A DNA stretch of 63,303 bases, counting the filler, from Trichodelitschia bisporula (Eukaryota): assembly GCA_010356995.1 (NCBI GenBank). It is 9 parts of 5 records of this genome, joined end to end, with 100 filler letters (N's around TTAATTAATTAA, not from the genome) between each part and the next. Parts side by side here need not be neighbours in the genome. Positions count along the whole stretch, not along the records: positions 39,195 to 59,721 come from ML996691.1; 8 more parts are not named here. One strand, 5' to 3'. Positions 24,909 to 62,430 of the stretch are shown piece by piece. The position numbers and the translations under genes were made by a program. The first letter of the stretch is position 1, and every line of letters starts with the position of its first letter. The notes under the pieces were generated by a model. The model worked only from the letters and a program-made list of their open reading frames with translations. It searched no databases and had not been told where the DNA came from.

Positions 24909-27900
24909 ATGGCGTCAAAGAGGCCGAGGCCAGACGATTTGATCGAACCGTCGAAAAGGCTGAGGCTCTCATCACCGGGATATGGAGTCTCGTCTTCCAG
25001 TGAGGATAGACTGCAACCCAACAATGAGGTAGGTTCTTCGTTCGTATGATCTGCCCAGTGGCCTACAGAGATCGAATGCAAATCCACTGACATTGTCAAG
25101 CTATCCAATACTGGCACAACCGTTGTTCGGAGCCCGCCGGGGATCCGATTGAAGCATTCGCAATACACAATAGGATGGATATGCGCACTCCCTATCGAAC
25201 ACAAGGCTGCACGGGGGATGCTGGACGAAGAGCACCCAAGTCTCCCTCAGAATCCATCAGACGACAATGTCTACACGCTTGGCCGCATTGGCGAGCACAA
25301 TACGGTCATTGTGGGCTTGCCGGCAGGGTTAATGGGCACCTCCACAGCGGCCTGGGCGGCTAGTAAAATGCAGGCGACTTTCAGCTCGATTCGGTTCGGC
25401 CTGATGGTGGGCATTGGAGGTGGTGTGCCGAGCTGCAAAAATGATATTCGGCTGGGGGATGTTGTTGTGAGCCAACCATCCAAGGGCCATGGCGGAGTAA
25501 TTCAGTACGACTTCGGGAAAACAACACCAGACAAGTTTGAGCGGACTGGCTTCCTGAATTCGCCTCCCATCGTCTTGCTGAATGCAGTAGCGAATCTGAG
25601 GGCCAATTATGATCTGGGAGGGAAGATCTTGTGCCACCTTACGCAGCTGTCCCGTCAACCTTTATTTGCACGGGAGAATGCCGGACCGGATGTTTTATAC
25701 CGCGCTGACTACAACCACGAGCGACCCGGTACTAGTGATTGTAGTGAATGCAAGACGGACTTTATCAAACGGCGACAGCCACGTGGTAATGATTTTGTCA
25801 TTCATTACGGCACCATAGCATCCGGAAACCAAGTTGTGCGAGATGCCACGACAAGGGACAGACTCAGCAAGGATTTTGGAGGCGTTCTTTGCTTTGAGAT
25901 GGAGGCGGCGGGGCTTATGAACCATTTCCCCTGCCTTGTTGTGCGGGGCATCTGCGACTATGCCGACTCGCATAAGAACAAGAGCTGGCAACCGTATGCG
26001 GCAGTGACGGCAGCTGCGTATGCGAAAGAGATCCTGTTGTCGATACCGGCAGCCGAAGTCGAGACAGGATCATCTGCGTTTGAGGTGATGAACCAAAATC
26101 TCGGTAAGTGGCTTTTACCTTTCTTTGATGGTAGTTGTCATACGGTAGGGAAGAGAGGGCTAACCGCTGTTGTTAGAATTCAATAAGGTCCTCGGTAAAC
26201 TACCCACTGCTGTGGATGCGCCGTTCAATGTACGCAAACGAGAACACGAAACTGCCTGCCTCCCTGGTACCCGTGTCGCACTTCTCGACCAGATATATGA
26301 CTGGGTTGATGCAAAAACCCACCCAAATATATTCTGGCTGAGCGGGTTGGCCGGCTATGGCAAGTCTACGGTTGCGCGAACAGTGGCCGCCAGATGCTTC
26401 GGGAAAGGTCTTAGCGTCAGTTTCTTCTTCACCAAAGGCGGCGGAGATGTTGGCCACGCCGGTATGTTTGTTACAAGTATCGCAGTGCAGCTTGCAAATA
26501 ATGTGCCGGATCTAAAGCCGGTCATTTGCGAGGCCATCGCCAAGCACAGCAACATCGCAAACCTGTCTCTACGCGAGCAGTGGGACCGTCTTGTTCTCGC
26601 TCCTTTATCGCGGTTTGGAACCGATCAATCCTCTCCAACATTTCTCCTGGTTGTTGACGCTCTTGACGAGTGCACAGGTGAGAGTGACGCGCGGACCATT
26701 CTTCAGCTTTTCGCCGAACTTCGAGGATCAAACGAGGCCAGACTTCGAGTCTTTTTGACAAGCAGACCCGAAGCTCATATCCGGCAGGTATTTCACGATA
26801 TACCAGAAACAGAACGCTACGACTTTAGACTGCAGGACATATCGGAGTCGGTGGTCGAGGATGACATTCGCTTTTTCCTACGGCAAGAGTTCAGCGGTAT
26901 TGCCCGCCACCTTCATTGCAGCACTGACTGGCCAAGCGCGCAGGACATCATTCGTCTTGCTCGGAACGCAAGTGGCCTATTCATCTGGGCTGCTACGGCA
27001 TGTCGCTTTGTTAGGACGGGGAGACAATTTGCCACCGACAGACTGGCTACCCTCCTAAACCAATCCCCCACCGAGGGTAACACGCCGGAGAAGCAGCTCG
27101 ACTACATCTATTCCACTGTCCTCAAGCAAAGCGTTCCTGCTGAAGACTTTTCGGAAGCAGAGAAGGAAGAGCTGCGGTCTATGCTGAGATCTCTAATTGG
27201 AAGCATTGTGACCTTATTCTCTCCACTTTCCATCCAGTCCTTGAGCAACTTGATGGAAACTCGCGGCGACAAAGTAAGCCAGACACTGCACGATCTCCAC
27301 GCCATTTTCGACATTCCAAAAGAGCCAAATAGCGCACTCCGTTTACACCACCCCTCATTTCGGGACTTCCTTCTGGATAAAAAAAGAAGCGGAAATGCCA
27401 AGTTTTGTGTTGACGAGAAGCAAGCACATCAGTCTCTTTCTGCGCACTGCATGCGACTTATGTCCAAATCCCTTAAGCAAGACTTGCTGGGAATCGGCCG
27501 TCCGGGTGCGCCTGCAATAGAAATCGAGAACGATCGACTAGAGCGATGTCTCCCTGCTGAAGTACAATACGCATGCCTCTACTGGATCCAGCATGCTCAG
27601 AAGGGTGGCTCCCAGCTTAGAGATGATGACCAAGTCCATCGGTTTCTAAAGGAGCATCTCCTTCATTGGCTTGAGGCGCTTGGATGGATGCAGAAGGTTT
27701 CCGAAGGGTTTCATGCCATCGTGTCTTTGGAGTCCATGATATCTGTAAGCTGGACGTAAAGCAGAGTGGGGATGCTTGGCTGATACTTGGTTTAGGCGCA
27801 GAGGTGTCCGCGACTATCGGAGTTTGTTCATGACATGAAACGATTTGTCCCGTACAACCGGACAGCCATCGAACTAGCCCCCTTGCAAACATATTGCAGT

Positions 27901-28155: not shown

Positions 28156-28719
28156 NNNNNNNNNNNNNNNNNNNNNNNNNNNNNNNNNNNNNNNNNNNNT
28201 TAATTAATTAANNNNNNNNNNNNNNNNNNNNNNNNNNNNNNNNNNNNNNNNNNNNGCGCCACCAACTTCACCCGTGCCACCAGCCCAGTCGCCACCTGCG
28301 CCACTGCCTCAGCTCGTCTCCCTTCCCCCGCCACGGTACAACCCCGCACTCAGCCCGCTAGGCACCCCACGCGGAGAATCGGAGTGCGGGGTAGCGTTGC
28401 CTGAGTTACGTTCAGAGGTGACGCTGCAGAGACGGAACAGGGGTCCCTACAGGCGCCCACGCTTGATCGAGATATGACCCTCCCGATACTCATGATGCTT
28501 CGCTTGCAGATCCAACCGGGCCAGCTCTGGAGGGGAACCGGCGACAGGCCGAAGACGGGGCGATTTGAGGGAGGCATGGTGGTTCAATGTGGAGGCAGGA
28601 CGAGCACACGTTACTGCCCATCCAAAATCTCTTAACGCGCTAGTAATTTACATTCCAATTGAATGAAATCTGGCGCTGGATTTGGCGGCAAGACGGAGGA
28701 AGGTATCAGCTTCCATTGA

Positions 28720-30676
28720 TCACACCCTCCTGCGCTTGTGGATGGCGAGGTTCCCACGTTGGTAAAATTTCGGGCCACACTCACTGGACGGCCACAAGCA
28801 CCCAACCACATGTCTAAATCCGGCTACTTGGAATCCACTGACGACGTGCACTACTTCGTCCATCAGCCTGGCTGCTTGATTTTCCGCCGTAGAGCATGCA
28901 GAAAGATATGCAATCTCGGCGTGTGGAAGCCGTATCTGAGATACTTGGCGAACACTAAGCGTTTCCCTCCCTGGATTCCGGTCTGCTCCCCCAGCCGCCT
29001 GTAGAAGTGGGCCACTTTCGGACGGGTCGGTGGAATCCGATACTCCATGGCAAGCAAAATGAGCAATATCAGACTCTCCAAGATGCCGCATAACCGTCGC
29101 AACGTCGGGCAGATCGAGATGTCGTATCCGAGCGGAAGCCCCAACCGCGGCTTCGACCTCACACCGCTCAGCCTTCACTCCGTCGAGGCTGTGCGCATCT
29201 GGTGTAGTCCCCATAGTAACAATGAGCAACGCCGGCTGGCGGTTACGTGATACAGCTTCGCCAGACGCCCGCTCTCTGGAATAAGCAAGAGCTTTGATTG
29301 ATGGCGTGTATGACGACACAGCGCAACAGTATGCATTTTCCGATGCGTGTCCGGTTTCGCCGGCAGCGTGAAACGGGAAAGAACTAGCAAGGCCTGTGCC
29401 GATCCACCAGACCCTAGGCAAGGAGTCTGCTGAGAAGGAGTCTGCTGAGGTTTGGATACGGTACCGAAGCTCCTGAAAAACAAGCTTCACGCAGTTTTGC
29501 CACAACCACGAAAGGAATTCGCGATAGGCCTTGTTCCTTGCGCCACGATCGCCCGACGATGCATTGGTGAGGTCTTGACCCAGCCAATCTTCAGCTTCGG
29601 ATGCACCGAGAAGAGGAAGGGGGATGGCTGCGCAATTGGTGGGTGAGATGATAATCGCATCGCTTCTGAGACCGGTGGCATTGACGACAATGATGCATCC
29701 TTCTGCTGAACACTTTTGCATGTATTCAGTGGCCAGTGCCTTCTGGAACCGGCTGAATTGCGGCAGTCTCCGTATCTCCTCTATGCACTCTTCCAGCTCT
29801 TCGATAGCCTCTGAGAATCTCTCCAGAGCTATCTGTCGTAGACGCTGATCGGTGTTGCTCTTGATGGGGGTATTAACTTCCTCGCGGAGGCTCTCGTATT
29901 TTGTGCAAAGATCCGGGTACACCGCTCGCAGCGCAGAAACGTCACTTCGATCGTCGATGAGGAGTCCGAGAATGAGTGCGCGTCCCTTCTCTAATACTTC
30001 TAGAGCCTCGCTTGGAGGTTTCCCCACTTGAAGGGCAAGAGAGCATGCACTGGCCGCCAGACCAGAGAACAAGGAGACAACATGCTGCTGATCGTTCCGG
30101 CTCAATGATCGATTGTGAACGTGAGGGAGGAGATCGAGAGCATCAACTGAAATGCGATAAGCTGCCTCAAAGACTTGTCGGTCTTGGAGCAACAAGAGAG
30201 CATGCCTGGAGGCACGTAACCGGACGAACGGGGGAGCATTGGGGCAATGCCAAGCCCGTCTATAGGTGTCGAGAGCTGCGGCAGTTGAGACTTTAGGAGA
30301 AGCGCCCCTCCCAAGCTGAGAAGACACGTTGCGAGATCTGGGTGGCGCTAGGCGTGACATCGACTGCCCTCTGGGTCACTTTGATCGCCTCTTCGAGGTC
30401 GTCCATCTTGCCCGTCCGCTCATATCGGCTTTCGAGTTTGGTCCCCAAGTTGTTCAGCCTCCCCGCGAGATCTGGATGATCGCTAGGCGTGACATCGACT
30501 GCCGTCCGGGTCACTTTGATCGCCTCTTCGAGGTCATCCAGGTTGCCCGTCCGCATATATCCGCTTTCGAGTGTGTTCCCCAAGTTGTTCAGCCTCTCCG
30601 CGAGAGCCGGGTGGTCGCTAGACGTGACATCGGCTGCCGTCCCCGTCACTTCGATCGTCTCTGCGAGGTCGTCCAT
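28720..30676 (-). pseudogene. TPR-CHAT caspase-like protease; two frameshifts and a C-terminus replaced by a zinc-finger fragment
   Basis: TPR repeats (DHPDLAGRLNNLG), LEKGRALI, RSDAII, PRVWWIGTG..FPFHAAG, SSYTPSIKAL, catalytic HFACHG and AYLSACST, GFRHVVGCLW. Frameshifts at ~30345 and ~30295. Confidence 0.88.
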
Positions 30677-32019
30677 CCTGCGTCTCCGCTGATGTTGGCT
30701 TTCTGGACTGCTTCCCAAGCTTTCAGCTCCCCTGCGTAGTCTGGATGGCCACAATGTAAGCAAAGAACAGCAGGGCACTCGGGTGTCTCACAGAACAGGT
30801 TTAGCACTAGTAGGAGACAGGCGTGAATCTGGCGAAGAACAGAATGCGATCGCTGCCTTCCCGAAGGCAACATTCTACCAGGCTTGGTAATGCCACATGT
30901 GATATTAATGTCAGCACATTATTGGTGAGGGTTAGTTTACAGCCTGACGGTTGGGCTTGGCAAGGCGTCTTTTGCGGATAAACCCTCGTAACGACATGCG
31001 GGGCACCGCCTGCTGCTGCCAAGGGTCATGGTTTGGGCAGTCACCTGCATAATTTCAGCTAGCCATAGGCCCCGCTCCGTGAGGGGGGAAGGTGTCGTGG
31101 GATGTGCCGTCCGGGATCTGTCGCTCCCCAATCATGCTACTCCTGCCTGTCAGGGGCTGTGCATAGGGCTGAGCCGTAGGCTCACCCTAGGCTCAGCCTT
31201 GTGGTGAAGCCTTGAGCTCCGCCCCAGGTGTGGCTGAGGGTTATCCTTGGACTGAGGAGCTCAGCCTTGGACCCCCACCAATTAATACATATGGCTACGA
31301 TCGTTGGCTCTTGACAGGACAACGATATGTCTCGTCTTCACCTCTGACCATCTGCTATTCAGCCCGTCCACAATCCCCACTGTGACAGGAGCGTGCAACA
31401 GTGTGGAAATCAAGAAGGGTATGATACAGGTATGAATAGGTTAGTTCCATAAAGGTCTATCTGGAAAGCGAGCCACCGGACCCTTAAGCACGTCGCGCGG
31501 CCGTCCGCCTGAGGCACGGCGGAGTGCGGGGAGTGGGGAGGCTGGCGTGACGTGGCAGCAGCTGCGTGGGGAGGTCGTGGGGAGCCAATGAGTTCAAGGT
31601 CCGGCGGCGGTCTCCCACGACACCGCCCGAGCGGGATGTATGCGGGTTTTGGGCTGGGATTCTCAGTACTGTAGTCTACCCTAGTCAAGGGCATCTTCGT
31701 CGCGCGGCTGTTAGGGAACCGTGGAAGTATCCTATCATTTGCTTACAGCTCCCCACGAATGGCCCTATGCCAGGAGATTGATGCGGCCCTCTTATGCCCT
31801 ATGTCGTCTCGTCAGCCGACGCAGCCTCCGGGAATAGCCCCACAGCCAAGGACGAACATAGTCTCCCTATTCCATACATCTTCTTTTCAGCCCCAACAGC
31901 CTTCGGGGATACATTCATGCGATGGAATTCTAACCATAAAGTTTATCGTCTCCAGTTCTCCTCCTCAAATCCTTCTTGATCCAAGGCTCTTTGGCCAAAA
32001 CGGAACGGAACATTCCATC

Positions 32020-32838
32020 ATGCCTGTTAGCTTCCTGCTTCCCCAATTCCTCCTCCCTCTCTCCAGCGTTCAACTTGGGCGTTTCGTCATCAGCACTACC
32101 GAACCTCACCAAGACTTCCACGACTCTATCTCCGTTATCGGCGATGGACTGGCCGAGAAGATTCAAAACCAATACGAGGGCTTTCGTGGCTCTACCACCG
32201 ATGAAAGCTTCGCAGCGAAGCTTACCAGCTTCCTCTCGGCCTCCTTCTCAAAGCGCACCAAATCATCTCTGCGGATCACATCTACGCAAGTCAGGACATA
32301 CTACCTGAAAAACGCCACAGAATGGTTCAGAGGCGCTTTACAGCACAAAGCGACGCGCATGTGGTTTGAGAGAAAGATGGACGAAGGAGAAGATATATTC
32401 ATGGTGGTCGGCTATCACACGGTGTTGGATGCACGTATCATCGAACAAGCTGGCGAACAGCGCGCTGCAGGAGGTAGTGCCGTTTTACCAGTCTCCGCAG
32501 CGCTGATGGCCGTTGGCATCGCGATCCCCCTCGGGGGCTTAATCGATCCGGGCGTTGCTACCGCTCGTGGGCGTATGGAAAATGAGCTGGGACAGTTCAT
32601 CGCGCAAGGCGAGCAGATCTGTGCTGTGCAATATCGCAAGGTTCAACCCAGATGGTTTTCAAGGAGCAAAATTGACAAGATCATGCTTTCAAAGGATCCT
32701 TGGTGGGAAAGGTATGACAAACTACGAGACCTTCAGGAAGGTTGTGAAGATGTCGTTGAGGTAGTCTTGAGCGATGCAGCGGTCCCGGAGGGAGAACACG
32801 ACGAATGCCAGATAGGACCGGATGTGTTTGTGTCGTGA
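32020..32838 (+). CDS. Fungal gasdermin (HET-Q1/RCD-1-like), copy 2, 272 aa
   Basis: 8 aa differences from copy 1; intact ORF; head-to-head with TPR-CHAT across ~1.35 kb. Confidence 0.8.
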   Translation: MPVSFLLPQFLLPLSSVQLGRFVISTTEPHQDFHDSISVIGDGLAEKIQNQYEGFRGSTTDESFAAKLTSFLSASFSKRTKSSLRITSTQVRTYYLKNATEWFRGALQHKATRMWFERKMDEGEDIFMVVGYHTVLDARIIEQAGEQRAAGGSAVLPVSAALMAVGIAIPLGGLIDPGVATARGRMENELGQFIAQGEQICAVQYRKVQPRWFSRSKIDKIMLSKDPWWERYDKLRDLQEGCEDVVEVVLSDAAVPEGEHDECQIGPDVFVS

Positions 32839-37253: not shown

Positions 37254-37447
37254 TGTTGGTGGTGGCTGAGATGGCGCGGCGGTGCAGCGGCCAGCGAGAA
37301 GTTCAACGCGACGACATCTCACCCATTGACTAGCCGTGGGAAGTGAGCTAGCAGTGGGATGTGAGCCGACTATATACCTCGCCAGGAGACGACCCCTCTC
37401 TCCTGGCTCCACTCCAGCCACCCCAGGTTGCCGCCACAAATTCAACA
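37254..37447 (+). mobile_element. Probable solo LTR, family B
   Basis: TGTTG...TTCAACA ends; the 3' ~97 bp are shared with 39622-39718. No TSD and the left boundary is uncertain. Confidence 0.6.
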
Positions 37448-37836: not shown

Positions 37837-37936
37837 NNNNNNNNNNNNNNNNNNNNNNNNNNNNNNNNNNNNNNNNNNNNTTAATTAATTAANNNNNNNN
37901 NNNNNNNNNNNNNNNNNNNNNNNNNNNNNNNNNNNN

Positions 37937-39094: not shown

Positions 39095-39194
39095 NNNNNN
39101 NNNNNNNNNNNNNNNNNNNNNNNNNNNNNNNNNNNNNNTTAATTAATTAANNNNNNNNNNNNNNNNNNNNNNNNNNNNNNNNNNNNNNNNNNNN

Positions 39195-39367
39195 GTTGGC
39201 TTTCTGTTGGTGGTTCTCTGGAGGGCAAGTGGTAAGGTTGAGGTCTGGCTGACGTTGCTCGCGGGGGCAGGTGTAGTGGTCTCACCAGCAACAGGTGAGG
39301 AGGGTCGTGAAAGACTGGAAGAGGCATGGAAGCGGCCCCGTATCCGGATCCGCTTTGCAGGTGGCAT
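39195..39367 (-). CDS. 5' end of an NLR (MPPAKR leader class); partial
   Basis: Paralogous to the starts at 57074 and 62430. Confidence 0.75.
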
Positions 39368-39577
39368 CTTGGAAATAATGATGCTAGTCAAGAAATTGCG
39401 GACTTGTGAAAATGCAGGAGTGGAACTGGAGGTTAAAGGCGAGGCTTTGGGGCTTCGAGCTGAGCTCAACTGCGGGGCAGAATGCCAAGAATTGAGGCTG
39501 TGAGCTGCCGGGCGCGGAGGGGAGGACGAGATTGGAGGAGACACAGCCACATGCCACGGGGCATCGAGTTCTCCTAC

Positions 39578-39718
39578 TGTTAAAATGAAGTGTGAACTTG
39601 ACTGAGTTGCTTAATCGACAAGCAGTGGGAAGTGAGTTGAGTATATACCTCGCCAGGAAACGGCCCCTGTCTCCTAGCTCCACTCCAGCCACCCCAGGTT
39701 GCCGCCACAAATTCAACA
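39578..39718 (+). mobile_element. Probable solo LTR, family B (141 bp), non-matching flanks
   Basis: TGTTAA...TTCAACA; flanks CCTAC / AGTAT; joins the DUF3435 remnant to NLR upstream DNA. Confidence 0.7.
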
Positions 39719-39719
39719 A

Positions 39720-40310
39720 GTATTACTGGATCAAAGATAAGCTCCTTCGTTTCAGTAAGAAGGTGGGTGGCTCTGTTATATCATTTTTAGCCTGCAAGAG
39801 CCAAATTGAAGTTCCTTACGGTCTGGGATTTCACTCGTATCTTTGGGAAAGAGGAGGTCGACCTCCACAACCTGTTGGAATGCGGTGGCTGTGTTCAGCC
39901 TCGCCCAGTTTCAGCCACAGGGCTCGAGTATAAGTAGACTCGGGGTCTCCACTTCTTTGACAATTAAGCAACTTGTTCATGGACAGACCTTCGGTCTAAC
40001 TTGTGATGCTGTGATGTTTCCATTAACCTCACACCTCCTTTTAACATAAACAGCTTCGGCCGCATCCGCTCCGCATCGCGAATCAAGGAGAGCTTGACAT
40101 ACTCGTAACGAAGGACTCTGGGTAGTTCACCATGACCTCGTTTGGCGTAGTTCACACTAGTAGTGCCGCTGGCCTCGTTGCCGTATCCATAGAAATGAGT
40201 AACACCAAGGCCACTTGGACTCGTAATCTCTCGTTGGTATACTGCAGTTTGTCCAACTTCCAAAGATAGTTAAGAAAGATCATCATATCGAAGGTTCTTG
40301 CAGCTGCACA
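39720..40310 (-). pseudogene. DUF3435 tyrosine recombinase (Starship captain-like) remnant
   Basis: Manual translation: FDMMIFLNYLWKLDKLQYTNERLRVQVALVLLISMDTATRPAALL, frameshift, VLRYEYVKLSLIRD..KL, [LTR], VVEVDLLFPK, probable intron, ETKELIFDPV. Confidence 0.75.
39873..40046 (-). mobile_element. Solo LTR, family A, inserted in the DUF3435 remnant
   Basis: 174 bp; degenerate TSD CAACC/TAAAC. Removing the LTR plus one TSD copy restores the recombinase frame. Confidence 0.88.
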
Positions 40311-42031
40311 AAACTGCTTCCATTGACTCTGGAGTCGCTTGTGGTTGTGGGTTGCCGACTTAGAGTATCTACTTAGTAGTGGGCGATTTTTCAGCCTTGA
40401 GAGTTTTGGCGGAAGTGCTCAAAGAATTGTGTGAGAAAAGATTGATTGCCCCGCTTATTACCTTTTCTAATTTACAGGAATGAACAGTATATGTCCGTAA
40501 TGGTCCTCCAGGATGTTCCTGAATTTCATCGGACTTCGGCGTCATCCATCTTCACCACTTCGGTGTTCGCCGTGCCAAGCCTGACTTTCGGGTATCCTGA
40601 CATTGGGTATGCTGACAGAGAGAAGGTGAGCGTAGTTTTGCGTCGACATTGGAATTGAGGGTGGAAGCATAAAGTTTGGCTCGGGGGGAGTGTTTGGGGA
40701 TATTTAAATCAGACCATTAACCAGTTTACCTCCCAGCTCTCCTCAAGGCCATCTAACGGAGGCCCCACGTAAGGCGTGTAACAACGCCATATTTGTCTTC
40801 CCAGAGGCCTTTCAAGATTGAAAAATATAATTGAGAATTCCATTATCTAGTCGCGCGCTTAATGCAGATAACTTCTATTGGACAATATTCGCCAAGGCTG
40901 ATGACAAAGCACTCAAAGTGTTGGTCCAGATACGGAAATTCCCAAGTCGGGAACGCGGACGTAGGTGCAGTCTCTGACCTGTGGCCGTATGTGTACGATG
41001 ACGGCTGTACAACTCTCTTGAAACAATCCGACGCAGACGATGTCAATTTCTCGCTGGAGGAACTGCATCCATTCGGAACAGGCCCTCCAACCCCGCTAAA
41101 CAGCAAGATGAGGCCGGCACAATCTAGAGTATTTTTTGCTCTCAACGTGCAGCATCTCAGAATATTGTTGACAAAGGTCGCAGGAGCCATCTTCCGCCAC
41201 ACTCGCATCTAGTTCAACCATCCGGAGCTGCGCATGGCATCCGGCACAGGCTCGGCCCCCAGTGAAGCACGCTCATTCATAATCATGTAGCTCAAACATA
41301 CCGCAGGTAGACCCTCGACGACATTAATTCATCAGCCATGCGGCGCAGTACCACACAGTACAATTCCGAGGGTTGATACTGTATCACATACTGGGGCTGG
41401 CGGCCTCTCGGTTCGGAGCCTTGGCACCACAGCCTGATCACAATCCCGCTTCCGTCACAGCCCCACGAATTCGATATCTAGAGCCGCAGTGCATGCAGAC
41501 CAGTATACCACGAATAATTTCGAAGTAACTATACACAGTGCAATGTGTCGGCGTCTCTAAAGGGAAAGTTAGTCCGATTTCTGATGTCTGCCTGCGTGCT
41601 CGGCGCATATTATCGCCCGTTAAAGCGTATTGCTTGTGGTGGCGCTGCAGGTTGGCATATTGCACAAGGCTAAGCCGTACGTCTTGGTTACTGCATGACT
41701 GGATTTCAATTCGGATGGTCATTGGGCCCTGATGGCTACACAGGAAATGGGGGTCGGAAAAATCGTCGCACGCGATCAGGCTGCGAAGGACGGGTGCCAT
41801 GACTATTGGACCATCTCTCGCATTCCATGCAGCGCCTCCATGCACCTAAGTCCTGTCGGTAAAAGATGGACGTATCGATAATTGGTTTGAGCTCGCCGTG
41901 AGGCAGACACGGCTGCGGGAGGGGCTGCGCCCATAAGACCCTCCCCGCGGGGGTGGCTACAAAGTTGAGGAAAGCTCACGGAGGTCTGCTCAACGAGCCT
42001 TCCTGCTTGCATTTTCCATCAGCTCACCAAA

Positions 42032-44558
42032 ATGATGAGGTACCAGCACGTTGCTGGCGAAGACCGAGATGCCGGACGTGGAGCGACGGCATCCGCACAG
42101 GTCGAAGATATTGAACTCGACGCCAGACTCCGAGCGACAAGGCACCCTGTGCCTGATGGAGAGGACTTCAGACGTCGAGCAACTGCATACACACAGGTCG
42201 ATGATGACGAAGACGCCGGGCCCCGAGCGACAATGCACACCGTACCAGATAGAGTGGATGCCGGACCACCAGCGCCGATTGCCACGGCAGTCGAAGCCGG
42301 AGCAAGATTTGGGCACCTGGCCGCAAGCCGCCCGTGGGAACAGGTGAGCCCCGCCGCCTCTGCGACGGAGTCCGGTCCCTCGAATCGTACCGAAAAGGGG
42401 TCCGCCCCTTATTCAGGCAAGAAGTCACACTCCTTGAAAGGGTGGTGGACGGAAGCTGGCATCCTCTTTCTCGGCTTCGGCTTGTTAGCTGCCATCATCA
42501 GCGTCCTAGCGACGTACCATGGCAAGGTTCAGCCGAAGTGGAAGTACAGAATCAATTTGAACACATTGGCTGCTGTAATGTCAACAGTTCTGCGCGCCTG
42601 TCTGATCTCTGTTGTCGAAGAAGGTCAGCTCGATTTTTTGTGCCCTGTGGATACTAAGGAAGTCAGTAATCAGTCAGCTGAAATGGTACTGGCATCGTCA
42701 ACCTCGTCCGCTTCAGCACCTATCGTACTTCGACAGGGCAAGTCGTGGGCCATGGGGTTCATTTCTGTTCCCCATTCGCCTTCGAAAATTGTAAGTGCCT
42801 CGATCAACGCAGACATCCACTTACAAATCCAGCTCTATTGCTCAACTGGGTTGCTTTCTTACACTAGCCTCCTTTGCCATCGGGCCGTTCACGCAGCAAG
42901 CCGTTCGCTCAGTACCTTGTGACCGGGACTCTCCAAACTTCCGACCGTTCTTTCAGACTGCAAGCAAAATCGAGATGGGAGCAATCACCCGAGTCGGCCC
43001 GGCTACTTATTCTATCGATGGCCCGACCAAGGGTGCAGTTATTAGTGCTCTGGCAGACCCGGTGGCAAATCAATCCCTCGCGGGCATCATGGGAGGCTGT
43101 GGAACCGGCAACTGCACTTTCCCTGCAGAGAACGGTATCACCCATTCTACGATTGGAATGTGCACAAAGTGCATCGACACAACAAGATTCATCGAATGGG
43201 TTCCAGGAGTGATGGGCAATGAGAGCACTCCGGGTACTGAGTCCTCGATGCGTCTACCCAACGGACTGAACATCACGGGCCCCCCTTTCACCTGCCTTAC
43301 AAGTCAGTTCGACAACTCCTTGGATTGGATGATTTCCCTAGCGGATGACGAATTCCATGCAGCAGGAGAAAGCGGGATTGTGAAGTGGACATCGCTACAG
43401 AGTACGGCTGTGGGCTGCGACTATGGAACAAACCATTCGACACACCCGGGCACCTGGGACTGCGATAGGACGAAGAGCATGAACGTAAGTGGCAACGACG
43501 AATTCGTGACTTTGAACTACATTGCTACAACATGCGTCGTCTACCCATGCACGCGGCACTACCACGGTCGAGTCCAGGAAGGCGAACTTACCCAATCGCT
43601 GGTATCCGAAATCCCCGCGCCGGTTTTCGCTGACGACGATTTGATAGAGGCTGTCTCTACCGGGCCCATGTATCACGATCCTGGGTACGGCTACGCGCCA
43701 TTTGCGGGCCTTAAGAGAGAATGCTCCGTCAACGGGGCTCGCTTATGGCTAGCGAAGGTGAAGAGATTTGCACCGGACTCTGCGCATCAAAGCCCACGTG
43801 AGCAAGAAATGCACGGATATCATTTTCATCCGACGAAAGCCACCTTTAACGCGACCACTGAAGGCGGGTCGACCGTAAATCTGCCCATGGACTGCATCAA
43901 TCCCATCTCAGGCCTCTTCGTTGAAGCAATACGTTCGTTTCTCGCCTCAATCCTGCCAGGCAGCTGCGCTCTTCCCACACCCCCGTCCGGCTTTCCTTAT
44001 GGGGATGACTACTATGGGCCCTGGTTTCACGAGTACCGCGACTTTAGTTATGTGAACTGCAAGACGGACGTACTGGCGGAGTCATGGTGGCTCAACGGCT
44101 TTTACAATGGCGGAAACGCCACGCACGACACCATTGCGGGCACCGTCGGCGCCATGGCTGAAGCGATGACGTCGCGGATGCGACTGGTGGGTGTCAGCAA
44201 AGACACAAACCAAAGCGAAAAGGTGTTCGGCAAAGCTTCGCACACTACCATCTGTACCGAGTTTGATGCCTGGTGGATGGCAATGCCGGCGGCGGCGCTC
44301 GCCCTGGGTACCTTATTTTTGGCCATTGCGGTAGTGCAATCAACCTATGATGGCAATCCGCCACTGTGGAAGTCATCAGTATTGCCGCTTGTCTTTGCGA
44401 ACCCGGGGGAGCTTGGGGAACCGGCGGGGAGTATGAAGGAGATGGAACAGGCGGCGAAAGTCATTGAAGTGGAACTAGTGAAAACAGGGAACGGGTGGGA
44501 GTTTGTGGGAGGGCCTGGACACTCGCAGGTGGGAAGTGGGAGGGCAACTCCGGTTTGA
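42032..44558 (+). CDS. DUF3176 family membrane protein, paralog A
   Basis: WWTE..TM..INLNTL..ISQLKWYW..RPLQHL.YFDRASRGPWGS, PFTQQAV, CGTGNCTF, C-terminal TM and PLWKSSVLP. Two short introns (from ~42624 and ~42791). Confidence 0.85.
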
Positions 44559-44922
44559 GTCTTTGCTGTCAGCGGGGAGAAGTGTTTCGCACGCTTTGGT
44601 CGGATAGGCATTTGGTGTGGTGCTGGTTTGGGGAGGTCTCCGAGAGGTTCTGCACAAGTCAGAGAAGAGCGGACAAGACATGAAATCAACTATACAACCA
44701 ACAGGAATTCCCAAAACCCCAAGCAAAATGATTACATCGAAGCGAAACGCGCCCCCAACCGTCCAGACCCATAACCCATCAGTCATTATCATAATCATCA
44801 CCATCATCATAAGTACATCCCCTCGCTCATCGTACGCTCATCCCCTCATCCATCTTTTGCACATCCCCTCAGTCGTCCCGTACACACACCCTCTTCAACC
44901 ACCCATCAACTCCCCTAAACCC

Positions 44923-45645: not shown

Positions 45646-46904
45646 TTTGGGGGGTGGGTGACGGGTGGGGGTGCTGGTTGGGGGGGTGTTGCGCGGGCGC
45701 TGGTGTTGGTTGGGGGGGTGCTGGACGGCTGGTGATGCTGTCAGGGTGGTGTTGCACGGCTGGTTGATGCTGGTCAGACTGCTGCTCGATAGCTGGAGAC
45801 AGGGACAAACAGTTGGACCCAAAATCAACGGCGGGAGTAAGATATGCAAGGCTGGAAATTTGCACGCTGACGCGGGGCAGGGAGGCGGGATCTTATACCT
45901 AGCCATCCATCCTACGATAGCCAACTCGCCAGCCAAAGACAGAGGTTGGAGAAGCAAGGCTAGAACTAAGCTAGCATGTGGATCAGCAGCCGCGAGTGGT
46001 GACGTCCGAATGTCGTTCTCCCAGCCCCCAAGCCCGCTTTACGCCCACCCTGCCACCTGCAAAAGGCGTAAACCACTCGGAGAACTGGGTGTACGCCTCA
46101 GCCGCGCATGGGGATAATGGTTCTCACGCCATATCGAATACCAAACATGTTGCATCACCGCTCATGCTATCCATTTAGGTACCCCCCGGAGACAAATCCT
46201 TCGACAGACACCGCTCTCTTCGCCTCGCCCATCGGTCAGGCCAAACTCCTCCCATTCACACAAACGGTGAAGCTGACACTCGCCCTCAGCCCACGGCCCA
46301 TACCCGAAGAACCCTTCAGCCCTCGTATAAACTCCCGCGCCCCGCCATCGTTCAAACCTCCGCATGCAGCGGGTCGGGAGCGGCGCGCGTTGGCCAGTAG
46401 CGCGCATGCTGCGAAGCCATCTCATGCAGCCCGAGAGAAAAAGGCAATGCAGAAGTTTTTGTAGACACGGCAAACTGGTGGTGGAGGTTGGAGGTGAGGT
46501 TGGGGGGGCGTTGTGGGCGGTGGCTGGCGGCCGTTGGGTGGCTGGGCGCGTGGACGCACGGGCCAGGGCGGCTGCGACTACTGCTCACCTCCTCTCTTAC
46601 CCATCACGACACACAAAATTGCGAGCAAAGGATATCGTGAGAACATGGTGGATTAGCTGTGGCGAAATGATGCTGGAATTAGAAGCTTCAAGTCATTGCT
46701 GCATTCATGGCAAGATTCAAAGCAAGGCGCACATCTTCGCATCATACCCCGCCAAGCAGGACTATCGCAATGGGGCCATGCATATGACGCATGCATATCC
46801 AAGGCCATCCAACACCAAAACCAAGTTTCAGCTCTTGCCACCACTGATATGCCGAGATGCAAAAGTCACGATGGAAATCCCAAGAGAGCAAAAAGGTGAT
46901 GTTC

Positions 46905-46991
46905 TGGTCAGTACGGGGGTCGAACCCGCGACCTTGGCGTTACAGACAAGCCGTATTAGCACCACGCTCTAACCAACTGAGCTAACCGACC
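46905..46991 (-). tRNA. tRNA-Ile(AAT) with a 13-nt intron
   Basis: GGTCGGT acceptor stem, TAGCTCAGTTGG A-box, anticodon CT-AAT-A followed by the intron, GGTTCGACCC B-box, and a T5 terminator downstream. Confidence 0.95.
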
Positions 46992-49055
46992 ATCAATTAT
47001 ACATATTGATTGATGGCAAAAGTGCTAGTTGCCATTCAATAGGCGCACACAGGGCTTTGCGCTCGCGGGACTCCGATGAGGCATGGACTGCTTTCTTTTG
47101 ACCCGACGATGCTCACGATGCAACCCCCCACGTAGGCAGTACGCGTTATTATGTCCTCCGCAATGAGTTATAAGTCACTCGCCGCCCGAGAGGTGAGCAG
47201 CCCTCATGAGGAAAGATTTTCACCGCCCGCAACAGCGCCTCCCTTCACCAAGCGCTCGTGACCACAAGACACTAAACTACCCCTCCTTCATACCACTTCG
47301 TCATCGGTTGCCAATGACTCGAAGCAGTGCTTGATGACCTCCCCCAATTCCTCTCCCTCTCTCAACTTCTAGGCCCCTCGATCGCCTCCGACGGAATCGA
47401 TGCCGGTACTTCTTCAGCAGCTTCCGCTAGCAATACCAGAACCCGGTTAGACGTTCTAAAGGGACCCGCCCATACGGCTAGCGAAAGCCTGCATCTCATT
47501 TCCATTACTCGATAGGAGCAATCGCGTCGGCCAGCTCCGAGAGACATCTCTAACCCGTGGCCGCTGTCGGGGCCGTCGCCCAACAACACACCTAGCATCA
47601 ACTGCGGCACCGTCAGCTCCACTTCATTAAAGCGATAATAACAGAGACAGCGACCACCAGGGCAGCAAGGAAGTTCGCAAAATCTCTTCTTCCGGGTCAA
47701 GCGGCAAGGCGGCCAGAGTGGATTCGAGTCCGGCTCCATATCCCATTGGCGGCACGATGTTTCTATTACTCGATCAACGGCGGCACGAGCCAGCGACAGT
47801 GATATCCACGAAGTCAGGGTCAAATTTCGCTACTCTGCATGCAGACAGAATTGTTGAGAGTGGGGCGCGGGAAGATATCGTCGAAGAAATGGATACTCAT
47901 TGAACCTCTGGCTTACCCCGTGAGTATCCAATGCGTTCCAGCTGCGACTCTCTATACATCCGTAGTTGTCGTTCAGACACCCTCGTAGCTCAGGTACGTA
48001 CCATGCGGAGCCCCCCCCGGACCGCGCACTAACCCCATCCCCAGCCCTGTCAATCTCTTACTCGATCAGAACCGTTCCGATCGAGTAACCGCGGAAGCAC
48101 CCGGCATGACGCAGCAAGCGGCGGTCTAGCCTCGTGCGCGATCGGCAAATCAGCCACCAGCCTCAGCCGATAGCCCTGCGTTTGTGCGGAGCTGCACACG
48201 CCTGTTGTGCGTCCAGTTATTGGCCAATTGGCCCGTTTTTCTGGACCAAATGCACCCCGTTTGGCCGTAGCGCAGATACGGCGCGATAAGCACACTTCGC
48301 TCAATCCAACCGACGCTTATCGATTTCGACTTCTTTCCGGCCTTCCTCCACTTCTAAATCGGACGTTACGGGCGGGTTGGTGCTTCTGGATAGCCGAAAT
48401 GTCGTTTACTGGGGTACAGCGCAAGCTAGAATGTCTCCACATTGCCATAATGCATCGGACCGCCAGCCTTATCAGGGGGGACCGTTGCGCGCGTTCAGCT
48501 TCCGCTCCTGACTTCCGGTGCTAACACCACCTCGAAGCATCCAGCTCCCCCGGCCCAGGAATTTCCATCGAGTAATCCATCCGTCGACGGCAAGCCGCGG
48601 TGAATCCAGCGACTTCGGCACGGCGATCCCTCACCCCAGCGTACACCCGCTTCCGGACGGATGCATGCTCAATTTTGTACTGGGGAGGGGGAGGGTAAGC
48701 GGGCTGCTGCGGGTCTTTGGGGAAGATAGATAAGGGGACCTGCACCCCACATTTCATGCTATCTCGTTCCTGCGTACCCCAGCTTTGTCTTTGTCCTTGT
48801 ACTTCAACTCTCACTGCAGCCATTCGTCGCTGACAATCACTTCCCGCGCGCGCTTCTTCCCTTGACCGCGTTCTTTGTCCCTTATCGCAGGCTTATCAAT
48901 CGCTGTCTCAAGCGCTGTCAAATACCGCATACCGAAATCTTCCGTGAACCTCACCGGCTACCAGTATAAAGATCTACGCCACGCCTTGATCCTCCAACTC
49001 AATCCGGACCTCACCTCATCGTCACCTTCACCACCATCCCCTCAACCAGACCACC

Positions 49056-51290: not shown

Positions 51291-51449
51291 TCCTGCCTCC
51301 CAAACGTTGTCAAGATGCCAGTGTCCTTCTCCTTCTCTCCATGCTCCATATGGTGAGTGCACACCAGAGCCCCTTCCCAAACCAGCACAACGCCCAGTGC
51401 CTATCCGACCAAGGTGTGCAAAACACAGCTCTCCGCTGATAACAAAGAC

Positions 51450-54023
51450 TCAAACCGGAGTTGCCCTTCCACTTCCGGGAAGTGCCCCATGAGATCCCCC
51501 CACAAACTCCCATCCGTCCCCTGTCTTCACCAGTTCCACTTCCATGCCTTTCGCCACCAGTTCCATCTCCGTCACACTCCCTGCCGGCCCATGAAGCTTT
51601 CCCGAGTTCGCAAAAACAAACGGCAAAACTGACGACTTCCACAGTGGTTGATTGTCATCGTAGGTTGATTGAACTACCGCGATGGCCAAAAACACGGCAC
51701 CCAGGACGAGGGCCACCGCCGGCATCGCCATCCACCAGCCATCAAACTCCGTACATACGTCAGTCTGCGAAGCCGTGCCGTACACAAATTCGGTTTGGTT
51801 CGTGTCTCTGTTGATACCCATCAGTCGCATCCGCGCCGTTAGTGTTTCGACCATGACGCCGATGGTACCCGTAATGGTTCGGTGGGTCGCATTCCCGCCT
51901 CTGTAAAGGCCGTTGAGCCACCATGAATCCGGCTGCTTCCCGGTCGGGCACATCACATTATTAAAGTCGCGGTACTTTGAAAACCAGGGCCCTCCCATCT
52001 TTGAGCTGTGCACTTGGTCCTGTTCCCACGGCGTTGAGGGGATTTGGCAGCTGCCCGACAGGGTCGTGGAAAGAAACGCATTTACTGCAATAAAGAAGCG
52101 GCCTGAGATGGGGTTGATGCAGTCCATGGGTAGATTCACGCTGGGCCCGCCTTCAATATCGGCGGTAAAAGTGGCATTCGTCGTGGGCTGTTTATATCCG
52201 TCAGGTCCGTATACGCCTTGTAATACACTTGCGCCTCGATGCGCCACGTCGGGAGCAAATCCGTTTAGCTTCGTTAGCCACAAAAAAACCCCGTTGACGA
52301 AGCAATGCCTCTTGAGTCCGGCAAATGGCCGGTAGACGTACTGTTGGTCTTCGTTGGTCTCGGCCTGGACAAACTCCGCCTGATTAGGGCTGTCGAACAG
52401 CGGCGCGGGGATTTCGGACACCAGCGTTTCGGTAAGTTGGCCTTCTTGAACTTGGCCATAGTAGTGCCGCGTGCATGGGTAGAGAATGCATGTTGTAGAG
52501 ATATAGTTGAAGGCCGCAAATGCATCCGTAAAATCAGTGCTCGTATTCATCTTCAAGGTACCCGCCCGATCACAGTTCCAGATGTAGTTGCCGGGCATAT
52601 GTGGGTCTGGACTTCCTCTGCGACAACCTATAGATGTAGTCGCCAGTGATGTCCAAGTTAACGCATTTGGGATTGTTGCTTTGAATTTTTCGTCTGCTAC
52701 GGATAGCATCCAGTCCAAGGAGCCACCAAACTTAGATACAAGGCAGGAGAAAGGGGGAGCCGTGATGTTTAGTCCGTTGGGTAGACCCACAAAGGCGGGA
52801 GCTGTGGTTGTTCTGTTCGAAAGGTCCGGAAACCATTTGATCAAGCTTGTTGTGTCTATGCACTTTGTACACATTGCAATCGTAGAATGGGTGACATTAT
52901 TGTCCGAAGGGAAAGTGCAGTTACCGGTTCCGCAGCCCCCGAAAAGGTCCGAGAGGGTTGATTGATTTGTGGACGGGTTTGCCAGGGCACCAACAAGTGC
53001 GCCTTTTGTCCCACCATCGAGGGACCACCCACCATCGGTGGTCCAAGAGTTCTCACCGCTTGGGCTCATTGCTCCTTCTCCGATTTTGCTTGCCGTCTGC
53101 AAGAACGGTTGGAAGTTCGGAGAGTCTCTTTTGCAAGGTACTGAGCGAATGGCCTGCTGCGTAAACGGCCCGATAGCGAAGGAGGCAATTGTCAGAAAGC
53201 ACCCCAATTGGGCGACAGAGCTGGATTTGTAAGTGGATGTCTGCGCTGATCAGGGCACCTACAATGATCGAAGGCGAATGGGGAACAGGAATGAACCCCA
53301 TGGCCCACGACTGGCCTTGTCGAAGTACGATAGGTGCAGAAGCGGACGAGGTTGACGATGCCAGTACCATTTCAGCTGGCTGATTACTGGCTTCGTTAGT
53401 ATCTATAAGGCTCGTAAAACCCACAGCTGACCTTCTTCGACAACAGAGACCAGACAAGCGCGCAGAATTGTTGACATCACAGCAGCTAACGTGTTCAAAT
53501 TGATTCTGTACTTCCACTTCGGCTGAACCTTGCCATGGTACGTCGCTAGGACACTCATTATGGCAGCTAATAAGCTGAAGCCGAGAAGGAGGATACCAGC
53601 TTCCGTCCACCACCCTTTCAAAGAAGGCGACTTCTTGCCCGAAGAAGGGGCGGGCCCCTTTTCGGTACGTTTCGAGCGACCGGACTCCGTCATCGAGGCG
53701 GCGGGGCTTGCCCGTACTCGTACCCGCGGGAGGCTCGCGGCCAGGTGCTCGAGTCTTGCTGCGACTCCGGCTCTCATGGGGATTGGCGCTGGCGGTTCGG
53801 TATGCTCTCCATCGGGTACAGTGTGCCCTGTCGCTCGGAGCCCGGCGTCCTCTCCATCAGGTACATTGTGCATTGTCGCTGGGAGCCCAGCATCCCCTCC
53901 ATAAGGAGCAGAGTGCATTGTGGCTTGGAGCCCGGCGTCCTCCCCATCTTCCGCCCGTCCGTGTACATTCACTCCCCGTCTGGCATCTTGGTCTTCCGCG
54001 GCAATGTGCTGGTACCTGATCAT
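51450..54023 (-). CDS. DUF3176 family membrane protein, paralog B
   Basis: Same motifs and intron positions as paralog A; N-terminal 15-aa repeats (GEDAGLxATMHxxPD). Confidence 0.85.
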
Positions 54024-55439
54024 TTTGGTGAGCTGATGAAAGATGCAAACATGAGTACTGGTTTAGCCGACCTCCGTAGGCTTTCTTTGACTTTGTAGAC
54101 AACCCCGCGCGGAGGGGCGCAGCCCTCCCACAGTCATGTCTGCCTCACGGAGAGTTCAAACCAATTATCGATGCGTCCACCTTATATCGATAGGGCGTGC
54201 GTGCATGAAGGCGCAGCAGATGAAGCGAGAGACGGTCGAATGTCATGGCGTCCGTCCTTGGCAGCCTGATCGCGAGCGACGATTGTTCCCCATCCGCGCT
54301 CCGCAGCCCTCATGGCCATCCGAATGGGAATCCAATCACAGCATCAAGGACGGACGCCGAGCAGCGCCACCACGGGAAGTACACTTAACCTTACTCCTAA
54401 CGGAGGATAATTATGCGCCAAGGACGCAGGCAACATCGAGAAATCGCACTACCATTCCCTTTCGAGACGCCGACGCATTCCACTGTGTACAATTACTGCC
54501 AAATTGAACGAGGCATACTGGTCTGCATGCACTGCGGGCCCGAGATAACTTTATTGAAATGGCGGGGCTGCGACGGAAAAGCGCAGTCGCGATCAGGCTG
54601 CGGCACCGAGGCTCCGAACTGATGTCACTAGCTCACAGAGCGTGGTATTGCCCCTCAGAATCATGACACCGCGTCGCATAGCTAATGTATTCATCGTAGA
54701 GCGTATTGCGAATGAGTGCCCTTGATTAGATGCCGAGCGCGTGCCGGATACTCGTACCATATGCAGCTCAGAAAGAACTTAAAAGGAAAGCGAGGATGGT
54801 GCGTCTGCCGACGCAGGCTGACGTGAAGTCAAGAAAGCAAAAGCAACAAACGTAGATTGACTGCAAATCTGAGATGAAGATGATAAGAATGAGGTGCAAC
54901 TGTTCTCTCAACTTTTGTCTTGGACGTGCCAAGGCACTACCCGTAGTGCAACCACTGCTCCTCCGGTAGCAATTCGATCCAGTCAAATCAAATCACCTTC
55001 AGTTCTAGAGAACTTTGCAACCAGTATTGAGCACATACGGCCATAGGTCACAGACATATACCTGTGTTCCCGGGAAAATAGCCGCCAAATCCGGCGGTTT
55101 GTAACGGCGTTCCTAGCGTCAGATTTCCCCAATGCAGGCTTCCAAGAAGTCGGGCGCTTAGAGTGTTCAGTATGCCTGTTGATGGCTAGCAAATTCCAGC
55201 GGACGAATTATATGAATTAGAAAATCTAAAATGTGGCTTACCCCGCATCGAGAATCAGCCCTCCGCCACTTTGTCTAGCTTCCGCCTCGTGCCCCTCTTG
55301 GGTCTCTCCATCGCCGCCGCCTCAATGCGTCCTCCCGCATGCCGGTTTTTCGTCTCGCCCACCCCTTCGTCTCGCCCGCCTCTTCGTCTTGCCCACTTCT
55401 TAATCTCGTTTTAACCCTTGCCTCGCCTACCTTTTCGCC

Positions 55440-55690: not shown

Positions 55691-57073
55691 CTGGTCAGCA
55701 GCGAGGTGGCGTCGGTGATTAGGCTGGCTTCCGAGGGGGAGCCAGTGCTATGGACGAAGCCACGGTGGGTCAGGGTTAGGACGTGGGTATGTGTGGGTTC
55801 TGCAGGCGCCTGGACGAGAAGTAGGAGTAGGGAGGTACGAGGGTCACGAACTGGCGGAGGTTTCGGCGGTGCTGCGGGGGGGTCGGGAACTGCGGGTAGT
55901 TTTGCTTGCGTCCACCAGATGAGTTGCTGCAGCTGCTGGTAGTAGACTGGTAGTAGTAGAGGTTAACCGTTGGGCCGCAGGAGGGGCTGTGCGGGAGAGG
56001 TTGCTAGAAGGGTGGCTGCGTGAAGGTGCGGGGGGCGGTGGGGTAGTTGCCCATGAAGGTTTACACACCGGAAAGCGACACGCTGATACGTAAGGCTTTG
56101 CGCGGCGTGACTTGCTACGGGTATGCCTAGGTGATTTCCGATAGCCCATCCGACGAGGGGAGAGCTGGGCGCGGTTTATTCGCAAACGAAGAGGTGGTGG
56201 AATGGGGTACTTGCGAGGCCGGGAATGCGATGGATTCGGGCCACATGGGGCCGCTTGATGGACGGGAGGAGCCGCTAGGCTAGTTCGAGGGGAAGCTAGG
56301 CGCTGTCTAACACTTCAACCTTTTGCCATTGTTGGCCTGTTGACGACAAGTTGTGGAGTTGTAGATGGACAATCGTTTCTCCTCGATGGGGATGAGGCCT
56401 TTCCTTCGCAGTTGGAACAGCCGTACGCTCCCGCGGGCTCAATTGTTCCACGGTACTGTATGTTTCTCAAGTCCGCGCTGACGACACGATACAACATGAC
56501 TGATACGATGTCGTCTGCTCAACTCCAATCGAGCCTTTAATCCAGCACCAGGACGCTTGCTGACACCGATCTCACACATTATCCAGCCACCTCTTCCACA
56601 GAATCAACTACGTATCTCCTCCATCAGAACAGTCTGTATGCCCCATCTGTCCCTGACTGCGCTGCCAAACTCCCTCCCAAAACCATAACCGCCACTCCGG
56701 CATCCTCCTGAGCCTGTTTATGCTCGAGCCCTGGTCAGTCTCGATATCCCGTACAGCACCTACAACGCAGGCATAGACGACGCAAGCAGCGTGGGCGGTG
56801 CAAACATGGATGAACAACCGGGTATGTCCTCCAGCGAAGTCTTCGTCTATGAACTGATCAGTTAGTAGGATAACTTGATGCCCCGTGGCATGTGGCTGTG
56901 TCTCCTCCAATCTCGTCCTCCCCTCCGCGCCCGACAGCTCACAGCCTCATTCTTGGCATTCTGCCCCGCAGGCGATCTCAGCTGGAAGCCCCAAAGCCTC
57001 GCCTTCAACCTCGAGTTCCACTCCTGCATTTTCACAAGCCCGCAATTTCTTCACTAAAATCATTATTTCCAAG

Positions 57074-59721: not shown

Positions 59722-59821
59722 NNNNNNNNNNNNNNNNNNNNNNNNNNNNNNNNNNNNNNNNNNNNTTAATTAATTAANNNNNNNNNNNNNNNNNNNNNNN
59801 NNNNNNNNNNNNNNNNNNNNN

Positions 59822-62145: not shown

Positions 62146-62430
62146 ATCGCCCTGACAGAGAGGTTGGTGCTCTTCGTCGAGCATTTTCCGGGGTGCTGCA
62201 AGTTCAATGTCAAGCGCGCAAATCCATCCTATTGTATAGTCTTCGTGACGAAGTCGGCGGGTTGACTTTCTGTTGGTGGTTCTCTGGAGGGCAAGTGGTA
62301 AGGTTGAGGTCTGGCTGACATTGCTCGCGTGGGGCAGGTGTGGTGGTCTCACCAGCAACAGGTGAGGGTCGTGAAATACTGAAGAGGCATGGAAGCGGTC
62401 CCGTGTCGGGATCCGCTTTGCAGGTGCCAT
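62146..62430 (-). CDS. 5' end of a PNP_UDP NLR (MAPAKR leader); partial, with small indels
   Basis: [22 protein letters not shown]. Region 62146-63303 is an inverted duplicate of 56197-57350. Confidence 0.75.

Follow-up and report, generated by a model that had tools for sequence, protein, structure and literature searches.

A DUF3435 tyrosine recombinase relic beside duplicated NLR genes in Trichodelitschia bisporula

The window analysed here is a stretch of 63,303 nt of fungal nuclear DNA from Trichodelitschia bisporula, made up of nine parts. Eight linkers of 100 nt, all identical (a 12-nt six-frame stop string between two runs of 44 N), join these parts and lie at positions 1938-2037, 3274-3373, 8132-8231, 28156-28255, 37837-37936, 39095-39194, 59722-59821 and 62046-62145. 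Distances across these linkers are undefined, and several of them fall inside duplicated NLR or TPR genes. To identify gene products, Pfam scans were conducted on 211 ORF translations (40 + 70 + 101). Besides the genes given below, this approach found a hAT fragment, copia gag and integrase and an amidohydrolase, and both transposon debris and duplications abound in the region. The window holds at least five PNP_UDP/NACHT paralog pieces. The main genes are as follows:

22899-23511, minus strand: Mog1 (Ran-interacting) housekeeping gene, two exon-like ORFs between WD40 and NLR genes
25050-27759, plus strand: PNP_UDP-NACHT NLR gene (Pfam), with the NACHT/NPHP3_N part at 26164-27759
28720-30787, minus strand: CHAT-TPR gene (Pfam)
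41969-42922, plus strand: DUF3176 gene (Pfam)
53403-54062, minus strand: DUF3176 gene (Pfam)
56879-59773, plus strand: PNP_UDP-NACHT NLR gene (Pfam)

A region of NLR, CHAT, gasdermin and HNH genes had been described by the initial annotation to the left of a recombinase remnant. The NLR and CHAT genes are borne out by their Pfam domains and the gasdermin by a predicted fold, while no HNH domain was found in the 211 ORF translations and that element of the description is not supported. The gasdermin-fold gene (about 32017-32835, plus strand) adjoins the CHAT-TPR gene. It lies within ORF 31675-32835, the C-terminal 272 residues of which belong to a widespread Pezizomycotina family (108 matches) with no Pfam domain; the Pfam gasdermin model itself matched none of the 211 ORF translations. 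A structure model built from 26 family members (mean pLDDT 68.6, pTM 0.70) matched gasdermin-like RCD-1 from Neurospora best among PDB entries (Foldseek E 4.9e-4, the sole match at E<=0.001, with a target-normalised TM of 0.4-0.5), followed by bacterial and animal gasdermins. Sequence searches of the PDB with the ORF and with the family profile returned nothing meaningful (best E 0.86 and 0.78, respectively). At the level of fold, and with modest scores, these results support a gasdermin next to CHAT. In fungi, gasdermin/protease pairs have been reported for NLR-like genes with a CHAT or S8 protease (cited in PMC9815663), and the arrangement here resembles them in that the two genes adjoin one another. 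The CHAT/gasdermin pair is duplicated within the window (5484-8131 versus 33142-30508, inverted, 95% identity), with a second gasdermin-fold copy at about 5787-6842 on the minus strand.

An unusual feature of the same side of the window is a set of ORFs at 20778-22212 (minus strand) joining a prenyltransferase alpha-alpha toroid domain to WD40 repeats. This pairing may represent an NLR-like sensor architecture.

Comparison of the window with itself showed that positions 39195-59721 hold a mirror-image duplication, each arm of which consists of an NLR, a spacer and a DUF3176 gene, with PF11374 found in both arms. The left arm of this inverted segmental duplication carries its DUF3176 gene block at 41411..44636 (plus strand), paired with 51372-54619. 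Four blocks are colinear from the centre outward:

DUF3176 gene: left 44636->41411, right 51372->54619, 76-78% identity
spacer: left 41408->~40940, right 54622->~55085, weak similarity
NLR 5' end: left 39577->39204, right 56864->57237, 90% identity
NLR body: left 39094->38210, right 58846->59721, 83% identity

The unique centre of the duplication (44.6-51.4 kb) contains the amidohydrolase and a tRNA gene. The latter (46904-46992, minus strand, 89 nt, 52 bits with Rfam) was not assigned an anticodon by ARAGORN, probably because it contains an intron. The linker at 39095-39194 corresponds to about 1.6 kb of the gene for NLR paralog 2 (NLR2), which fits a true gap inside the gene for NLR paralog 1 (NLR1). 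The 5' end of NLR1 is 90-91% identical to 56864-57237 (reversed) and to 62261-62636; beyond 39577 NLR1 lacks its native upstream DNA. NLR2 and NLR3 remain alike for at least another 660 nt upstream (56200-56864 and 62636-63300, 90.5% identity), while NLR1 loses its similarity to both of them precisely where a solo LTR, named LTR-A here, has its left end. LTR-A lies 211 nt upstream of the NLR1 start codon, and it may have altered the expression of this gene.

In the left arm, a foreign block of 1.35 kb, comprising LTR-A, a recombinase remnant and about 290 nt upstream of the remnant, separates the spacer from the NLR 5' end. The corresponding place in the right arm is 1.8 kb of DNA without recombinase signal, and neither tblastn nor HMM searches found a DUF3435 signal in the right arm. 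Since the mirrored arm is paralogous and lacks the recombinase, NLR1 would be part of a duplicated resident segment, and the recombinase block an addition to one arm. From right to left, which is the reading direction of the remnant, the block and the adjoining NLR1 end are composed as follows:

40650..40940, minus strand: about 290 nt preceding the recombinase start codon and unmatched in the paralogous arm; a putative 5' terminal or untranslated part of the inserted element
40617..40649, minus strand: start codon and first 11 codons (MSTQNYAHLLS), 10/11 identical to residues 1-11 of P0001 and 9/11 to P0002
40404..40616, minus strand: 213-nt insertion relative to P0001 and P0002, with the direct repeat CTCTC on both sides
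40158..40403, minus strand: N-terminal region and first catalytic arginine box (..NERLRVQVALVLLISMDTATRPAALL), E 1.5e-15 with our own HMM
40047..40149, minus strand: piece after a frameshift, YAKRGHGELPRVLRYEYVKLSLIRDAERMRPKLF, 16/20 identical to P0003 in a different frame, profile positions 208-234
39873..40046, minus strand: LTR-B, a 174-bp solo LTR (TGTT...AACA) inside the reading frame, flanks GTTTA / GGTTG
39822..39872, minus strand: frame resumed after LTR-B, VVEVDLLFPKDTSEIP, profile positions about 235-250
39719..39768, minus strand: last recognisable piece, THLLTETKELIFDPVI, profile positions 252-267 of 747
39578..39718, plus strand: LTR-A, a 141-bp solo LTR (TGTTAAAA...TTCAACA), flanks CCTAC / AGTAT, with no target-site duplication
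39195..39577, minus strand: 5' end of NLR1, start codon 39367-39365

The minus strand from 40649 to 39719 carries a tyrosine recombinase gene of DUF3435 (Starship "captain") type, reduced to its N-terminal third. A recombinase of this type had been proposed in the initial annotation from three motif-bearing frames, all of which are present on the minus strand where they had been placed: LW..D...Y.NER.RVQ.AL.LL....T.TRP in ORF 40152-40418, L.Y..V.L.L.R in ORF 39964-40269 and E...LIFDPV in ORF 39580-39780. Its proposed Pfam family, PF11917, proved to be the top family for the fragment, although the score did not reach the gathering cut-off: frame 40152-40418 alone gave E 0.015 and 14.7 bits against a cut-off of 25.8, and was the sole frame with a Pfam match among six fragments tested. 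The PF11917 model has 418 positions, of which the remnant retains fewer than 100, and the fragmentary relatives P0001, P0003 and P0004 also fall just under the cut-off (24.0, 21.2 and 20.3 bits, respectively).

Stronger evidence was obtained through relatives of the fragment. A word-index search gave 37 candidates, among which the single longer relative was P0001, a partial PF11917-annotated protein of 215 aa that is 84% identical to the first frame over half of the query. A HMMER search with P0001 recovered 135 proteins at E<=0.001, and the 33 of these with at least 550 residues were used to build an HMM of 747 positions. The full-length relatives are strong PF11917 members (seven of seven tested, E 5e-48 to 8e-86). 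When this HMM was run against the 2,493 six-frame ORFs of the window (at least 12 aa), a single match was returned, ORF 40155-40418 on the minus strand, at E 1.5e-15. With filters off, the adjoining frames align weakly but in order at profile positions 40-65, 155-199, 208-234, 236-245 and 252-268. When the inserted elements were left out and the two frameshifts bridged by X, the resulting read-through of 158 residues scored 85.4 bits (E 3.8e-25) over profile positions 29-65 and 155-267 of 747; its identity to the full-length protein P0017, over residues 210-312 of the latter, is 36%. In tblastn, 24 of the 33 full-length relatives match the window at E<=0.01, with all matches within 40075-40343. 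The similarity to clear PF11917 members is significant and colinear, and the assignment to DUF3435 stands.

A chance match, or descent from a different recombinase family such as Crypton, would have in its favour the sub-threshold Pfam score of the best frame (14.7 versus 25.8 bits). Against this are both E-values with the profile of PF11917 proteins, the 84% identity to an annotated member, the five pieces colinear with the profile and the first rank of PF11917 among Pfam families for the fragment. This explanation is consequently regarded as very improbable, and chance resemblance is for practical purposes ruled out.

The remnant extends beyond the span originally given for it, with a start codon at 40649. 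Four colinear pieces were returned by tblastn with P0001: window 40649-40617 (P0001 residues 1-11, 10/11 identical), 40403-40284 (residues 10-49), 40289-40116 (residues 147-204) and 40149-40084 (residues 194-215, in another frame). The arginine box reads ..NERLRVQ..TATRPAALL, and the piece 40158..40403 that carries it is identical to P0003 at 36 of 43 residues. At about 40286-40289 there is an in-frame loss of about 90-97 codons, equivalent to residues 50-146 of P0001 and profile positions 66-154, and a second frameshift with about 50 extra nt precedes THLLTETKELIFDPVI, the piece that stops exactly at LTR-A (39719).

The catalytic residues past the first arginine box sit in the C-terminal part of this family. 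The remnant ends at profile position 267 of 747 and does not extend to the second Arg, the His/Tyr or the nucleophilic Tyr of the active site; everything past the first catalytic arginine box is absent from the whole window. The C-terminal two-thirds of the recombinase were found nowhere in the window, either by tblastn with the 33 full-length proteins or by HMM search of the six-frame ORFs, and the gene is dead, a non-functional relic.

The 213-nt insertion has no other copy within the window. It was considered as an intron and rejected, as it has no GT..AG ends in a usable phase and has CTCTC at both ends. Heavy AT-biased (RIP-type) decay is not evident from the GC content across the remnant (0.43-0.51).

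The right-hand junction of the foreign block is approximate (about 40930-40948), being where the similarity of the left arm to 54622-55085 tails off. We identified neither a terminal repeat nor a target site there, and 40650..40940 has no second copy within the window. Neither a 5S rDNA nor a tRNA target site lies beside the remnant, the sole RNA gene being the tRNA at 46904-46992.

Two solo LTRs have shaped what is left of the gene. Ectopic recombination between LTRs of LTR retrotransposons deletes DNA and leaves solo LTRs behind. Interruption of the frame by an LTR had been reported by the initial annotation and is confirmed in LTR-B, which has two more copies in the window, 9592-9766 and 13319-13493 (91-92% identity), the one at 13319 with a perfect 5-bp duplication, GCATC. 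When the 174 bp of LTR-B and 5 bp are dropped, the frame is restored and ..RMRPKLVVEVDLLFPKD.. aligns to P0004 without gaps; therefore LTR-B can be read as a plain insertion with a decayed duplication (GTTTA / GGTTG). LTR-A is related to LTR-B, has TG..CA ends and recurs in part at 37350-37447 (92%). Through LTR-A the remnant abuts the cut-short upstream region of NLR1, and the unmatched flanks of this LTR agree with the truncation originally described. As there is no target-site duplication and NLR1 homology stops exactly at this point, LTR-A is interpreted as a recombinant junction. The features of solo LTRs are present, with TG..CA termini and more than one copy for each element and, for LTR-B, a 5-bp duplication at the 13319 copy. 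As with solo LTRs and products of LTR-LTR ectopic recombination elsewhere, one copy (of LTR-B) has a perfect 5-bp duplication and one copy at a breakpoint (LTR-A) has unmatched flanks. Unlike typical LTRs, LTR-A and LTR-B are very short (141 and 174 bp), and no internal retroelement sequence is attached to either in the window.

Close relatives of the fragment in the protein collection are themselves all fragments: eight proteins of 79-215 aa from eight scaffolds of T. bisporula (Dothideomycete), three of which share their final residue and exceed 90% mutual identity. Exhaustive HMMER search yielded no close relative of full length, its best full-length matches having 27-33% identity, and a word search for longer proteins gave one match at 27% identity. 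The queries represent the N-terminal part only, so C-terminal fragments elsewhere would escape these searches. The 97-codon deletion of the remnant is absent from P0001 and P0002, and the LTR-B insertion is absent from P0004.

The history that best accommodates these observations, to which we give a probability of roughly 0.6, is that an element inserted into one arm and that nearly all of it, any cargo included, was later deleted between two LTRs. An inverted duplication would first have produced the two mirror arms, each with its NLR, spacer and DUF3176 gene. A DUF3435-led element would then have entered the spacer of the left arm near 40.94 kb, between the PNP_UDP-NACHT gene NLR1 (minus strand) and the DUF3176 gene (plus strand), with its recombinase reading leftward. 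The gene would subsequently have decayed through the 213-nt insertion, the in-frame deletion of ~97 codons and the frameshifts, while small LTR retrotransposons landed in or near it. Finally, two copies of LTR-A, the first within the recombinase gene and the second upstream of NLR1, would have recombined ectopically. This would have removed the catalytic two-thirds along with any cargo and the far end of the element, as well as about 1.8 kb of DNA native to the NLR1 upstream region, leaving one solo LTR-A with unmatched flanks. The sequence itself shows what the remnant is and how it is built, both LTRs, the paralogy of the mirror arms and that the window lacks the rest of the gene; the order of these events, and that a whole element was ever present at the site, we infer. 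A 5' element end would fit the position of the recombinase start, about 290 nt inside the right-hand junction and reading away from it. Some observations count against this history. The right-hand junction is placed to within a few tens of bases and has yielded no terminal repeat or target site, and linkers interrupt the DNA to the left. The divergence of the arms is unequal (DUF3176 76-78%, NLR 83-90%), and so the NLR and DUF3176 adjacencies could be separate in origin, or the NLRs may have been homogenised by gene conversion; with at least five PNP_UDP/NACHT paralog pieces in the window, a chance neighbour is also less unlikely. As all eight close relatives are fragments, the sequence may have spread as a fragment.

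This last point leads to a different account, in which an already dead DUF3435 piece was copied here, together with the 290 nt that precede it, through segmental duplication or ectopic repair or as a retroelement passenger, and no complete element ever stood at the site. The eight short relatives on eight scaffolds, three with a common end point, the lack of a full-length close relative at better than 27-33% identity in the searches above and the many segmental duplications of the window would all fit such an arrival. The fragment, however, has upstream DNA and then a true start codon at one end and an LTR junction at the other, exactly as deletion in situ predicts. P0001 and P0002 without the 97-codon deletion and P0004 without LTR-B also speak against a shared dead source, and the restriction of the queries to the N-terminal part would hide C-terminal fragments elsewhere. 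We consider arrival as a dead fragment unlikely, if less so than the proposal of the initial annotation that the immune island is cargo of the recombinase element. According to that proposal, the remnant is the captain of a degraded Starship, the LTR-LTR deletion took only the 3' part of the captain and some proximal cargo, and the NLR/CHAT/gasdermin genes to the left are what survives of the rest. The leftward reading of the recombinase, which had been stated correctly (start at 40649, minus strand), is the orientation needed, and a 5' element end would be in keeping with a junction about 290 nt ahead of the start. NLRs are reported to co-localise with DUF3435 in Starships, and by the loose 2022 definition DUF3435 and NLRs without target-site duplications are formally 'Starship-like' (PMC9156397). 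The abundance of transposon debris and duplications, the unequal divergence of the arms and the many NLR paralogs are likewise compatible with cargo.

Set against these points is the mirror arm, in which NLR, spacer and DUF3176 gene occur without a recombinase and the NLR retains the upstream DNA missing here, so that a cargo origin would need the mirrored NLR-DUF3176 neighbourhood to be a coincidence. The sole physical link between the remnant and the DNA to its left is an LTR junction without target-site duplication, and contiguity with the original element has therefore been lost. DUF3723 (PF12520), ferric reductase (PF01794) and patatin (PF01734) had no match in the 211 ORF translations, and the Mog1 housekeeping gene (22899-23511) sits in the left-hand region. 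The CHAT/gasdermin pair is itself locally duplicated, lies beyond two linkers from the remnant and is tied to it by nothing. We regard it as improbable that the island is the surviving cargo of a degraded Starship. The further suggestion that the gasdermin module arrived on a mobile element is not supported either. On the reading that we prefer, insertion into one arm followed by LTR-LTR deletion, the NLR, CHAT and gasdermin genes to the left would be resident, locally duplicated host genes and not cargo.

The 5' end of a Starship is occupied by its captain, a DUF3435 tyrosine recombinase of conserved location and orientation, and Starships proper are bounded by target-site repeats and confirmed against empty sites (PMC9156397). 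In Hephaestus, the captain HhpA is required for transposition and its active-site tyrosines Y381 and Y416 matter (PMC10104507). The remnant shares with HhpA and with the captains of Voyager and other elements (PMC9156397) the sequence family and the N-terminal region with the first arginine box. It may also share a place near one edge of a foreign block, reading inward, although 1.35 kb is all that is left of that block. Unlike these captains, it has about 158 recognisable residues of about 730-750 and none of the catalytic residues after the first arginine box. Unlike in Starships, neither terminal repeats nor a target site nor contiguous cargo can be demonstrated at the remnant; downstream of it come the LTR-A cut and then the truncated 5' region of NLR1.

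In the literature on these elements, degradation is said to be common, both of single copies and of Starship regions. The 'Starship-like' regions of Gluck-Thaler et al. 2022 (PMC9156397) combine DUF3435 with DUF3723, ferric reductase, patatin and/or NLR genes, and the present locus shares with them a DUF3435 sequence with NACHT NLR genes and no target-site duplications. It falls within that definition through its NLRs alone, with no DUF3723, ferric reductase or patatin match in the 211 ORF translations, and its internal paralogy indicates a resident NLR; the definition is a loose one and says nothing on cargo status. The 'Derelict' regions of that paper are without DUF3435 and keep Starship-specific cargo, which is the opposite of the remnant here. 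No paper naming Trichodelitschia together with Starship was found.

The object is an ordinary transposon relic, and its extension to cargo is unsupported and, on internal evidence, unlikely. The remnant is an unannotated pseudogene which has now been flagged, and the solo LTR-A in place of native upstream DNA accounts for a promoter region of NLR1 that differs from those of its paralogs. Were the cargo reading true, it would mean that complete cell-death modules of gasdermin and activating protease had moved between fungal genomes by giant transposons; transposition-driven inheritance of fungal gasdermin/protease clusters is raised in PMC9815663 as an idea only. A recombinase relic beside immune genes is not enough to call those genes cargo, and in T. 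bisporula the paralogous arm serves as an internal "empty site" which points away from that reading.
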